From Mobula hypostoma (lineage: Eukaryota): DNA of 64,000 nucleotides. Below are positions 41,079 to 46,277 of this stretch, piece after piece (positions within the stretch are counted from its first letter, which is position 1; every line of letters starts with the position of its first letter). The notes under the pieces are model-generated. The model searched no databases. It saw only the letters and a list, made by a program, of their open reading frames with translations, and was not told the origin of the DNA. The stretch lies in contig NC_086097.1 in the NCBI RefSeq assembly GCF_963921235.1, positions 129,582,001 to 129,646,000 on the forward strand, read 5' to 3'. Both the position numbers and the translations under genes were made by a program.

Positions 41079-41751
41079 GTTCAGTAAATCTTGTGTTTAT
41101 TCTGTGGGAGCCACGGAACTTTTTTTTTGCTTGAATGCTGACTACTTGCGAAGTGGAAAGCATTAGAAATAACTCCAGTTTTCTGACACTAAATGCCAGG
41201 CCTGTCTCTAAACAGCAATTTTAATTTGTTTTTGCAACATTACAACAGTTTCTTCACGGACATTTTCTCAAGGTAAACAGTCAATTGGCTCAAATTGTTT
41301 AGCAGTATGTTACAATACAGTTTGATACAATTTGTAGCATAGGAGTTGGTATCTTTTCCCATTATATTGATAGTAAGTGCTTTTGACTTGCCATTAATTG
41401 TCCAGAATTTACTGGCGAACTAAAATTACTGAATGCCCTATTAATGAAACATCAGATTTGAAGTGGCAAGCTAGCATTACGCACTTCAGCATACATCAAT
41501 ATGTCTGAACAGTCACATATGCTAATGTGCATAATAGTAGCCTGCCAGTATTATGGCGGGCTAGTAATATTGCCATGTTATTACAAAAACTCACAGTGAG
41601 TCCCCTTGGTTAGCATAGGATTTCAAAGTCAAGTTTAATTTGAGTTGTATAGAAACAATACAAATTTTAAATCGATAAAGGATCTGATTGGTAGGGGTTG
41701 CAAGCTAAATTGTATGTGACCTGTCAGAATTAGAATTGAAAATACACATCG

Positions 41752-42445
41752 ACTAAGATGTTAACTGTCCTGTGCTATCACCAGTGGGATCATCAGTTGA
41801 TCTGCCACCTGTCTTCAGGAGTTTTGGCCCACTTATGATCAAGACTCCCTCGAGGTGGTGGGCCAGCAGTGCTAAAGCACCACCTCCCACTGATGAGCTC
41901 AAAAACTTGGCATCTGCCTCTATCAGAGTTGTTGGTCGCTTCCATCCAACAGATAGTCTACTCTTCAGGTGTCTATGCACCTACTGAAGGGTTTGCAAAA
42001 GATGAATACACTGTCTGACTATCCGCCCCTCTGGATGTACTTGGTCCACACCCATGATGATCCTGTCTCTGCTGCCCTGCTGGTTGACTTGATCTTTCTT
42101 CTAGTGAAGCCAAGGTCACGCAGCCATTTCTGGAAAGTGAACGCAATAAAGCCATGGCAACCTGCTTCGATTGGATAGCATGAGACCTTCCACCCTCTGT
42201 CTCTGCACTCTGATCTTAATTCTGCATACTTGGTTAACTTGCGCTCATGGGCTGCATCGATGTTGTCTTCCCAGGGGACTGAGTTCACCAGTAACCACTT
42301 CCCTACTGGTGTCAGACCATACGATTATATCTGGACGCAATGTGGTGAAAGCTATTTGCTCCGGGAAACTGCCTTTCCCATCCAGGTCAGCCTTGACACA
42401 CCAATCATTGGCTGAAGAAAGTATACATCCATGCTTGGTGTGCTA
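41752..42445 (-). mobile_element. Hero-clade (restriction-like endonuclease) non-LTR retrotransposon, 3' fragment
   Basis: DWCVKADLD..FPEQIAFTTLRPDIIVWS..EL/VPWEDNIDAAHERKLTKYAELRSECRDRGW..PIEAGCHGF..AAETGSSWVW; PD-(D/E)xK-type motifs; stop at 42019 followed by ~270 nt of 3' UTR. Confidence 0.88.
41783..41858 (-). ncRNA. Hammerhead-ribozyme-like motif with non-circularly permuted strand order (G12>A in this copy)
   Basis: CCACCU-cga-GGGAGUC-UUGAUC-aua-AGUGGG-cc-AAAA-CUCCU-gaagac-AGGUGG-ca-GAUCAA-CUGAUGA-u-CCCACU; four 6-bp complementary pairings around the core nucleotides. Confidence 0.65.
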
Positions 42446-42999
42446 ACTTAATATTTCATAATGGGAAATGTAGTACTATTCAACAGAACATGCCATGTTG
42501 TAAAGCTGTTTATTTTAATTAATTGTTTAAGATATTGTGGGTCTAGTGTCTCAGCAACCAGTGCAGTTGATGCCTTATTTAAAATTTACCAACTTGGGAA
42601 TTAACTGGGAAACTTTCTGGTACCAATCCTACATGTCACTGACAAATTGCTGTCACTCACAGAGAGGTTGAGAAATCTTGCATAACCACTGAATTTTAAT
42701 GAACGAGACATGCGAGAGCTCTTAAAAAATTATAAAAGGATTTAATCAGCTGAATGTAAAGAGCATACTACCGCTTGAATCCCTAACCCTAACAAATGAA
42801 GAAGAAACTCCCTCACTTAGAGAATATTTAGAGTGTGGAGTTTACTTCCATATGGAAAAAGTAAAGTTGGTGTAACTTCCATTTAGGGAAGTTGGGAAAA
42901 CAAAGAAGAAAATGAATACAAATAATGTAGTGGTCAATGCTGGTGGGATAAAGTGAAGAAGACTGGCGGGTGGTTTGTGTACGGTAGAGAGAGACTGGC

Positions 43000-43630: not shown

Positions 43631-43911
43631 CTTTGACCCAATCTCTGATGGAAATACTAAATGAAAACAGAAAATGCTGGAAAATACAGCACTATAGAAA
43701 GAGAAACTGAGTTGGTGTATTGGGTTGAAGACCCTTTGTCAGATCTTGTGCATCAGAATGCATGAAGCTTTAATTCTGGAGCGATAAGTCATTGTTCTTC
43801 ATCAATAGTTTTCTATCATAAGAGTGGATATAATCTCTGATGACTGGTCAGTGTTCAATTTCATTAGTAACACAGAAAATGAAGCACAGAGCAGACATGG
43901 ACAGACATTAG

Positions 43912-46277
43912 CAGAACAGGCCATTTTAGACTGGGTATTGAGCAATGAGGAAGGATTAGTTAGCAATCTTGTCGTGCGAGGTCCCTTGGGTAAGAGTGAC
44001 CATAATATGGTGGAATTCTTCATTAAGATGGAGAGTGATATAGTTAATTCAGTAACAAAGGTTCTGAACTTAAAGAAGGGTAACTTTGAAGGTATGAGAC
44101 GTGAATTAGATAGACTGGCAAATGATACTTAAAGGGTTGACGGTGGATATGCAATGGCAAGCATTTAAAGATCGCATGGATGAACTACAACAATTGTTCA
44201 TCCCAGTTTGGCAGAAGAATAAACCAGGGAAGGTAGTGCACCTGTGGCTGACAAGAGAAGTTAGGGACAGTATTAATTCCAAAGAAGAAACATACAAATT
44301 AGCCAGAAAAAGTGGCACACCTGAGAAGTGGGAGAAATTCAGAGTCCAGCAGAGGAGGACAAAGGGCTTAATTAGGAAAGGGAAAAAAAGATTATGAGAG
44401 AAAGCTGGCAGGGAACATAAAAACTGACTGTAAAAGCTTTTATAGATATGTGAAAAGAAAAAGATTGGTTAAGACAAATGTAGGTCCCTTACCGTCAGAA
44501 AGAGGTGAATTGATCATGGGGAACAAGGACATGGCAGACCAATTGAATAACTACTTTGGTTCTGTCTTCACTAAGGAGGACATAAATAATCTTCTGGAAA
44601 TAGTAGGGGACAGAGGGTCCAGTGAGATGGAGGAACTGAGGGACATTCATGTTAGTAGGGAAGTGGTGTTAGGTAAATTGAAGGGATTAAAGGCAGATAA
44701 AGTCCCCAGGACCAGATGGTCTGCATCCCAGAGTGCTTAAGGAAGTAGCCCAAGAAATAGTGGATGCATTAGTGATAATTTTTCAAAACTCTTCAGATTC
44801 TGGATTAATTCCTGAGGACTGGAGGGTGGCTAATGTAACCCTGCTTTTTAAAAAAGGAGGGAGAGAGAAACCGGCGAATTGTAGACCGGTAAGCCTGACA
44901 TCAGTGGTGGGGAAAATGCTAGAGTCAGTTATCAAAGATGTGATAACAGCACATTTGGAAAGCGGTGAAATCATTGGATAAAGTCAGCATGGATTTGTGA
45001 AAGGAAAATCATGTCTGACAAATCTCAGAATTTTTTGAGGATGTAGCTAGTAGAGTGGATAGGGGAGAATGAGTGGATGTGGTATATTTGGATTTTCAAA
45101 AGGCTTTTGACAAGGTCCCACATAGGAGATTAATGTGCAAACTTAAAGCACACGGTATTGGGGGTATGGTATTGATGTGGATAGAGAATTGGTTGGCAGA
45201 CAGGATGCAAAGAGTGGGAATAAACGGGACCTTTTCAGAATGGCAGGCAGTGACTAGTGGGGTACCGCAAGGCTCAGTGCTGGGACCCCAGTTGTTTACA
45301 ATATATATTAATAACTTAGACGAGGGAATTAAATGCAGCATTTCCAAGTTTGCGGATGACACGAAGTTGGGCGGCAGTATTAGCTGTGAGGAGGATGCTA
45401 AGAGGATGTAGGGTGACTTGGATAGGTTAGGTGAGTGGGCAAATTCATGGCCGATGCAATTTAGTGTGGATAAATGTGAGGTTATCCACTTTGGTGGCAA
45501 GAACAGGAAAATAGGTTATTATCTGAATGCTGGTCGATTAGGAAAAGGGGAGGTGCAACGAGACCTGGGTGTCATTGTATACCAGTCATTGAAAGTGGGC
45601 ATGCAGGTACAGCAGGCGGTGAAAAAGGCGAATGGTATGCTGGCATTCATAGCAAGAGGATTCGAGTACAGGAGCAGGGAGGTACTGCTGCAGTTGTACA
45701 AGGCCTTGGTGAGACCACACCTGGAGTATTGTGTGCAGTTTTGGTCCCCTAATCTGAGGAAAGACATTCTTGCCATAGAGGGAGTACAAAGAAGGTTCAT
45801 CAGATTGATTCCTGGGATGGCAGGACTTTCATATGAAGAAAGACTGGATCGACTAGGCTTATACTCCCTGGAATTTAGAAGATTGAGGGGGGGATCTTAC
45901 TGAAACGTATAAAATTCTAAATGGATTGGACAGGCTAGATACAGGAAGATTGTTCCCGATGTTGGGGAAGTCCAGAACGAGGGGTCACAGTTTAAGGATA
46001 AAGGGGAAGCCTTTTAGGTCCGAGATGAGAAAAAACTTCTTCACTCAATGTGGTGAATCTGTGGAATTCTCTGCCACAGGAAACAGTTGAGGCCAGTTCA
46101 TTGGCTATATTTAAGAGGGAGTTAGATATGGCCCTTGTGGCTAAAGGGATCAGGGGGTATAGGGAGAAGGCAGATACAGGGTTCTGAGTTGGATGATCAG
46201 CCATGAGCATACTGAATGGCAGTGCAGTCTCGAAGGGCCGAATGGCCTACTCGTGCACCTATTTTCTATGTTTCTAT
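43912..46277 (+). mobile_element. 5'-truncated CR1 LINE, same subfamily as 14435-16892, with several frameshifts
   Basis: Collinear and highly similar by eye to 14518-16886; RT motifs; TTTTCTATGTTTCTAT tail. Confidence 0.96.

Follow-up and report, generated by a model that had tools for sequence, protein, structure and literature searches.

Does a short minus-strand segment within the 64,000-nucleotide (nt) stretch of Mobula hypostoma contig NC_086097.1 analyzed here (hereafter, the window) encode a self-cleaving hammerhead ribozyme whose strands are wired differently from those of the classical types, and what might such a ribozyme do in a retrotransposon? Read 5' to 3' on that strand, positions 41858-41783 comprise, in order, CCACCU, CGA, GGGAGU, C, UUGAUC, AUA, AGUGGG, CC, AAAA, CUCCU, GAAGAC, AGGUGG, CA, GAUCAA, CUGAUGA, U, and CCCACU. 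The initial annotation described a pseudoknotted, non-circularly permuted hammerhead-like RNA at the 3' end of a Hero retrotransposon. Our results uphold an RNA of this kind in the sense 3' untranslated region (UTR) of a restriction-like-endonuclease long interspersed nuclear element (LINE), together with the letters and coordinates given, which agreed with the window sequence. The strand order that the annotation gave as C-B-A is properly S-G-C under the nomenclature of Eckert, Friedrich, Weinberg and Weinberg (2023, PMC10085705), where S denotes stem III, U-H, and stem I; G denotes stem II, GAAA, and stem III; and C denotes stem I, CUGANGA, and stem II. We consider it likely that the whole of 41896-41778 (119 nt, minus strand) forms a self-cleaving ribozyme domain of a conserved hammerhead type, present here as a decayed copy, located in the sense 3' UTR of a very abundant restriction-like-endonuclease LINE.

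The match within the window could not settle this question. A first descriptor, combining U-H, RAAA, CUGANGA, stems I and III of at least 5 bp, a stem II with five of six pairs, and small spacers, matched the 64-kb window once (cut after 41843) and had no match in 14 Mb of Markov-simulated sequence, while an analytic estimate at the observed quality gave ~1 chance match per 0.5-1 Gb. At that rate, and for a high-copy repeat encountered in a multi-Gb scan, statistics alone are insufficient, and it is the relatives of the element that decide.

The element itself is recognizable from its protein. An open reading frame (ORF) fragment at 42019..42324 on the minus strand, with its stop codon at 42019-42021, corresponds to the C-terminal endonuclease domain of a LINE, and the motif starts 123 nt downstream of that stop codon, which places it in the sense 3' UTR. 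This copy of the element is truncated on its 5' side, near 42446. Longer genomic copies contain RVT_1 (Pfam), and an alignment of 20 C-terminal protein domains (alignment A1) displays CCHC and PD-(D/E)xK in the C-terminal domain, along with the RPD...ELTVPWE...K..KY motifs that the homologues also carry. Such protein homologues occur in Branchiostoma, Amphiura, and many further contigs. Judged from these domains, the combination of RVT_1, CCHC, and PD-(D/E)xK would fit the LINE group labelled Hero, and no source names the clade. Within the 3.48-Gb host genome, a 301-nt query returned 1,537 first-look candidates (the 40 that were scored were 94-100% identical), protein queries returned >10,000 candidates belonging to one family throughout, and a 25-mer taken from the motif had 582 exact copies. 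Two distant homologues used as queries of the same genome returned that family alone, at 41-47% identity, and no other families. The within-genome copies, being 92-98% alike, are too similar for covariation.

Diverged relatives provided the evidence that carries our interpretation. Scanning metagenome contigs with alignment A1 yielded 452 protein relatives, of which 80 loci with 33-77% protein identity were kept. A descriptor covering all six block orders found compact sense-strand S-G-C motifs just past the ORF in 13 loci, and a strict descriptor (U-H, GAAA, CUGANGA, stem I, and stem III in S-G-C order, with no stem II condition) gave 29 sense-strand matches in 28 of the 80 loci (207,877 bases), two or three of which are probably spurious (L062 at 2252, L094, and perhaps L117), and none on the antisense strand of the same bases. 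Further, a covariance model built from 21 distinct motifs, with matches reported at E <= 0.003, recovered sense-strand matches in 33 of the 80 loci and no antisense match in any of them; the window scores 57 bits. The cut site lies 80-230 nt past the ORF match in 25 of the 28 strict matches.

The conservation is most telling in the core. The CUGAUGA box (41790..41796, C3 to A9) is invariant at all positions but N7 (that is, C3 U4 G5 A6 and G8 A9) in all 21 aligned representatives, as are GAAA, of which G12 A13 A14 occupy 41823..41825, the A15.1-U16.1 pair (A41822 and U41844), and G10.1 (G41864). By contrast with these fixed bases, N7 among 23 relatives is U in 11, A in six, C in four, and G in two, and the cleaved base H17, represented in the window by C17 at 41843 directly after U16.1, is A in 12, C in seven, U in four, and never G. 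A free N7, an H17 that is never G, and the fixation of every catalytic base together form the constraint pattern that would be expected of a catalytic hammerhead, and this pattern exceeds what the fold alone would need. Stems I-III are in register with the core and covary as described below. The family has no continuous A9-G10.1 strand: in the window, G10.1 (41864) lies 74 nt upstream of A9 (41790).

The copy in the window departs from this core in a single base. Its AAA at 41823..41825 reflects a G12A change at 41825, where 42 of 53 distinct copies have G and 11 have A, bearing out the proposals that the family carries CGAAA and that this copy was inactivated through loss of G12 by CpG decay. 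Assembled Logan contigs from sequencing runs of at least three organisms agree, with G12 accounting for 79% of depth in X1, 100% in X7 (depth 4), 93% in X18, and 94% in X21. In addition, the window copy has U at 41831 and a U.G pair in P1 (41893). Being 5'-truncated as well as G12A, it is dead. The G12A change by itself should reportedly abolish hammerhead activity (attributed to Ruffner et al., 1990). Two relatives have decayed in comparable ways, namely L079 at 2135-2216, with A at G12, and L088 at 2618-2696, with CUGUUGA.

The helices were evaluated in an alignment of the 21 distinct motifs (alignment A2, MAFFT), in which 23 pairs were counted across stem II, a clamp helix (Hx), stem III, and stem I. 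Standard pairs filled 87.6% of cells, compared with 40.1-50.0% when partners were slid by one to three columns, and the covariation score was 0.637 versus 0.113-0.188 for the slid partners. Changes on both sides were seen in 21 of the 23 pairs, and none of 500 shuffles matched the observed values (one of 500 for the count of both-side-change pairs). Stem I, formed by UUGAUC (41837..41842) and GAUCAA (41797..41802; helix 4 of the count), had 95.5% of its cells paired and both-side changes in six of six pairs; stem III, formed by GGGAGU (41844..41849) and ACUCCU (41817..41822; helix 3), had 90.4% and five of six. The clamp helix joins CCACCU (41853..41858), one base after the stem II 5' strand, with AGGUGG (41805..41810; helix 2), after which CA leads into stem I, and showed both-side changes in six of six pairs; in relatives it lies 0-2 nt after the stem II 5' strand and 0-4 nt before the stem I 3' strand. 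Stems I and III, the CCACCU/AGGUGG pairing, and the position of the predicted cut between 41843 and 41842 were all borne out, although what had been taken for an extension of stem III is, by its connections, the clamp helix, the counterpart of the fourth helix that links the other sides of stems I and II in type-SGC ribozymes.

Stem II is not as it was drawn. In the conserved fold, the strand immediately preceding GAAA finds its partner upstream of the cut site and not after CUGANGA, so that GGGCC (41826..41830, with C41826 as C11.1) is joined to GGCCC (41860..41864, with G41864 as G10.1). This stem (alignment columns 7-11 with 48-52) had 85.7% of cells paired and both-side changes in four of five pairs, bringing stems I-III together to 15 of 17. 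Relatives realize it as GGGUC/GACCC, GACCC/GGGUC, GGCGGC/GCCGCC, GGUGGC/GCCACC, GGUGC/GCACC, GUUGA/UCAAC, GAUGA/UCAUC, and GGGGCC/GGCCUC. A linker separates it from stem I (AUAAGU at 41831..41836; 6 nt here, 1-7 bases in relatives).

Two further elements complete the domain on its 5' side. The helix P1, whose 5' strand in the window copy is UCAUCAGUGGGA (41885..41896) and whose 3' strand UCCCACUGGUGA (41778..41789) begins directly after A9, closes the whole domain; it measures 12 bp in genomic copy L027 and belongs to the minimum-free-energy fold. Because whole-domain alignment with MAFFT lost its register on the 5' side, support for P1 and for the hairpin Hp described below comes from anchored counts and shuffles, and stem II, Hx, and P1 were located in relatives by a joint search, which failed for L075 and was mis-set for L077 and L117. 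Twelve of 23 non-redundant relatives have a P1 of 9-14 contiguous pairs starting from base 1 or 2 after A9, a length reached in at most 2.5% of shuffles of the upstream 60 nt for each of the 12, and its first nine positions exhibit 3-6 pair types each; in the remaining relatives, P1 is shorter, interrupted, or lost at a contig end. Run X21 mostly carries U and A at 41893 and 41781 (57% and 69% of depth, versus <1% in X18), and this per-position depth suggests a C-G to U-A exchange at that P1 pair. Between P1 and stem II stands the hairpin Hp, GGUGGUGCUUUAGCACUGCU (41865..41884), with no unpaired base at either end; RNAfold closes this insert into a hairpin with both terminal bases paired in 11 of the 12 loci with a P1 of at least 9 bp, the insert sequences differing among them.

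Comparison among the relatives shows a 5'-to-3' order of P1a-Hp-II5'-Hx5'-III5'-U-H(cut)-I5'-linker-II3'-GAAA-III3'-Hx3'-I3'-CUGANGA-P1b, in which stems I, II, and III each cross the others. P1, Hp, and stem II meet without unpaired bases at the place where an ordinary hammerhead has its A9-G10.1 bond, making a three-way junction at which the chain enters and exits the domain. A subgroup of five relatives (L058, L059, L061, L062, and L095) has one C between stem II and GAAA and a G after CUGAUGA, and has no 3' half to the internal loop that separates stem III from Hx; there, the A9-G10.1 bond may be intact, the chain departing one base further on. A viroid hammerhead tolerates an extra base between A9 and G10.1, as De la Pena and Flores reportedly found in 2001, and such tolerance would fit a branch at this point.

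The internal loop between stem III and Hx may make the chain fold back. It consists of CGA (41850..41852) opposite GAAGAC (41811..41816), and the pattern NGA opposite NNNGAN hints at a kink-turn, with the strict pattern present in only nine of 23 relatives. Those that carry it include L064, L065, L071, L073, L076, L090, and L120. With a sharp kink at this loop, Hx would double back alongside stems III and II until it met the distal ends of stems I and II. Such a kink may thereby account for how a clamp helix starting where stem III ends can span to those distal ends, a point left open by the discoverers of type-SGC.

From the conserved fold and core, we infer that the RNA cuts itself 3' of C41843 by hammerhead chemistry: the C17 (41843) 2'-OH would attack the adjacent 3' phosphate, as it does in other hammerheads, so that ...GGGAGUC would end in a 2',3'-cyclic phosphate and UUGAUC... 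would begin with a 5'-OH. With one strand of P1, II, Hx, and III apiece in the 5' product, the products would stay joined via these helices (~29 bp), giving a site-specifically nicked yet assembled domain with no free fragments, the resealing of which is conceivable.

Other explanations of the same data need to be weighed against a self-cleaving ribozyme. Chance resemblance amplified by a high-copy repeat has in its favor the one match per 0.5-1 Gb expected across a many-Gb scan, but the occurrence of the motif, exclusively sense-strand and with covariation in every helix, in 33 of the 80 diverged relatives refutes it and makes its probability negligible. The fold drawn by the initial annotation, a type-SGC RNA with a contiguous C block in which CCCACU pairs with AGYGGG next to a U/CC internal loop, is hardly more credible. 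Six AGUGGG/CCCACU pairs can indeed form in the window copy, and the first descriptor accepted them, but 41831 is C in 43 of 53 distinct copies and U in 10, so that AGCGGG leaves a C.A mismatch in most; an equivalent helix of at least five contiguous pairs was found in only three of the 23 non-redundant relatives; and the upstream-strand stem II and P1 covary instead, with CCCACU lying within the 12-bp P1. Nor does the supposedly noncanonical junction of U opposite CC persist, as the conserved pairing places an ordinary G10.1-C11.1 pair (G41864-C41826) beside GAAA. It is also very unlikely that cleavage occurs only between molecules, in dimers or in trans, as in the minimal hammerheads that Penelope-like elements carry. 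Two RNAs might in principle share the crossing helices, and retroelement hammerheads that cleave as dimers were reportedly described by Lunse, Weinberg and Breaker in 2017; against this, all strands lie within 119 nt, closed by P1 and with linkers of 0-7 nt, which suits an intramolecular fold. Further, type-SGC ribozymes cleave in cis (PMC10085705).

The alternative that deserves the most thought, although we judge it rather improbable, is that the domain is a noncatalytic structured RNA that binds the reverse transcriptase (RT) of the element to start target-primed reverse transcription (TPRT) and is a hammerhead in looks only. Zebra finch R2 binds a pseudoknotted 3' UTR element to initiate TPRT (PMC12222951), the domain here sits 46 nt from the element end, and the inserted copies come from uncut RNA. 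However, a protein scaffold would have no reason to keep invariant catalytic bases, a free N7, a non-G H17, A15.1-U16.1, and G10.1-C11.1. The two roles, RT binding and self-cleavage, are mutually compatible.

Several observations also weigh directly against a self-cleaving ribozyme. The strict motif is present in only 20 of the 53 loci with at least 300 nt downstream, being mostly undetected at 33-36% protein identity and concentrated among closer relatives. Neither the window nor 41500-42200 matched any Rfam family, whether the gathering score or an E of up to 10 served as the cutoff, and that the Rfam hammerhead models went unmatched is the expected outcome for a knotted permutation. The literature searched contained no tested hammerhead with a backbone break between A9 and G10.1. 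The genomic copies, too, bear little imprint of cleavage: UUGAUC is preceded by a non-C in 18, comprising 17 point mutants with element sequence upstream and a single copy that begins at the cut; and of 16 with a non-U after GUC, 15 read C. Since no copies beyond that one start or end at the cut, inserted copies descend from uncut RNA. Contigs of run X1 span the cut site. A self-cut 111 nt from the element end brings no obvious gain for retrotransposition. The suggested processing of tandem or read-through transcripts finds no support, inserted copies showing no footprint of cleaved templates.

If the domain does cleave itself, the origin of inserted copies from uncut RNA allows a role to be sketched. 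Possibly, though we offer this only tentatively, the domain is a 3' UTR module recognized by the RT of the element, much as R2 proteins recognize their pseudoknotted 3' UTR element (PMC12222951), and cleavage eliminates or tags RNAs not serving as templates; the inserted copies, deriving from uncut RNA, are the reason to think that non-engaged RNAs would be removed from the template pool. A bolder reading, which we regard as unlikely, is that of a seventh natural hammerhead wiring, in which a three-way junction splits a core block hitherto regarded as indivisible, fixed in a widespread clade of animal LINEs. It would serve as a protein-controlled, reversible nick-and-reseal switch within the RNA module recognized by the RT, and would owe its helix-for-helix likeness to the type-SGC ribozymes of circular RNA replicons to common descent through exchange between viroid-like RNAs and retrotransposons.

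The nearest known relatives in form are the type-SGC RNAs, comprising the HRIMA-1 motif and variants, of which Eckert et al. (PMC10085705) report 583 sequences. They came from metatranscriptomes only and are probably circular RNA replicons, and none of the RNAs in that paper, other than one GCS candidate, was in the genome of a known organism. Type-SGC ribozymes self-cleave in vitro, with activity depending on every one of their four helices. The SGC-2 oligonucleotides run S, a 3-nt linker, G, a clamp strand, stem I, CUGAUGA-U, stem II, and a clamp strand, and the RNAmotif pattern places the stem II strand right after CUGAUGA(U)G, with a stem I-II linker of 0-8 nt. The LINE family shares with type-SGC the block order, the core nucleotides, the crossing stems, the short stem I-II linker, and the clamp helix. 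It differs in that the type-SGC stem II strand follows CUGAUGA(U) and the ends of the molecule fall outside the blocks, whereas in the LINE family the equivalent stem II strand and one of the two clamp strands precede the cut site; the C block is therefore not uninterrupted, its stem II half standing upstream of S. Put another way, if the ends of the SGC wiring are closed, with a short loop connecting the clamp strand and stem III, and the chain is broken between A9 and G10.1 instead, the wiring of the LINE family results; it falls outside the six permutations that uninterrupted blocks allow. Having no stem II strand after CUGAUGA(U)G, the family could not be found by the patterns of PMC10085705, and the motif is absent from the set in that paper. 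Finally, type-SGC is represented by metatranscriptome RNAs, whereas the LINE family is DNA-encoded in an animal-type LINE.

Comparison with other hammerheads and with the ribozymes of retroelements draws the same boundaries. Classical hammerheads of types I, II, and III (Rfam Hammerhead_1, Hammerhead_3, Hammerhead_II, HH9, and HH10) have the same core, three stems, and a cut after H17, but they are unknotted three-way junctions with a continuous A9-G10.1 strand, which in the LINE family is interrupted. Hammerheads of Penelope-like elements and animal retrozymes are said to have been described by Cervera and de la Pena in 2014 and 2020. They share with the family discussed here a location in a terminal noncoding region of a eukaryotic retroelement, but those of Penelope-like elements are of type I, often minimal, and lie in the terminal repeats of GIY-YIG elements, whereas the present one is knotted and lies in the 3' UTR of a restriction-like-endonuclease LINE (bioRxiv 10.64898/2026.07.22.740005 and PMC11167929). 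The hepatitis delta virus (HDV)-like ribozymes of R2 likewise are self-cleaving ribozymes built into an R2-type non-long-terminal-repeat retrotransposon, but they belong to another class and lie at the 5' end, where they free the element from a cotranscript, while the LINE hammerhead is in the 3' UTR. Such HDV-like ribozymes of R2 and other LINEs were reportedly described by Eickbush and Eickbush in 2010 and by Ruminski et al. in 2011. The R2 3' UTR pseudoknot, which is bound by the R2 RT (PMC12222951), resembles the domain in being a compact pseudoknotted RNA near the 3' end of a related LINE, but it has no hammerhead core.

In the literature searched, no report of a hammerhead in Hero or in restriction-like-endonuclease LINEs was found, and the term "type-SGC" was used by no paper except that of Eckert et al. 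PMC13725137 (2026) mentions only that variants with extra helices or alternative permutations exist, citing Eckert and two metatranscriptome studies, and a check of Forgia et al. 2023 yielded no passage on hammerheads with extra helices. If our interpretation is true, this would be the first non-circular ribozyme permutation encoded in a DNA genome, the earlier ones being metatranscriptomic with hosts unknown. It would also place the motif in a defined mobile element that is present hundreds to thousands of times in one large animal-type genome and has relatives in many marine and other metagenome contigs. The wiring would break the working rule that the three hammerhead blocks cannot be interrupted, and searches whose patterns assume the rule overlook forms of this kind. 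Moreover, next to the 5' HDV-like ribozymes of R2, endonuclease-type LINEs would have a ribozyme in their 3' UTR, which would bear on how template RNA is chosen and handled.

Past the ribozyme domain, the last 46 bases of the element extend over 41732..41777 on the minus strand, an end set by copy-to-copy divergence beyond ~41732 and matched by loose contig ends at 41732/41733 in runs X1, X18, and X21. Two element subfamilies differ in the last 7-8 bases alone, with the ribozyme domain identical in both; copies of the second are L034, L036, L038, L040, L041, L043, L045, L046, L049, L050, L052, L053, and L056. Elsewhere in the host genome, contig C36 contains four motif copies (L147-L150) on one strand inside 5 kb (69962211-69967163), which share a C17-to-U change and a stem III G-to-A change, resembling a local tandem or segmental duplication of an inserted copy. 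Within the window, an unrelated second LINE fragment lies at 43809-45903 on the plus strand, ~1.4 kb from the truncated element, with stop-interrupted ORFs carrying reverse-transcriptase-like motifs (e.g., ...FADDTKLGG...). The all-permutation descriptor gave one loose G-S-C match there, at 43680-43842 on the plus strand and inside this fragment, with stems of 6, 5, and 5 bp spread over ~160 nt, which is probably due to chance.

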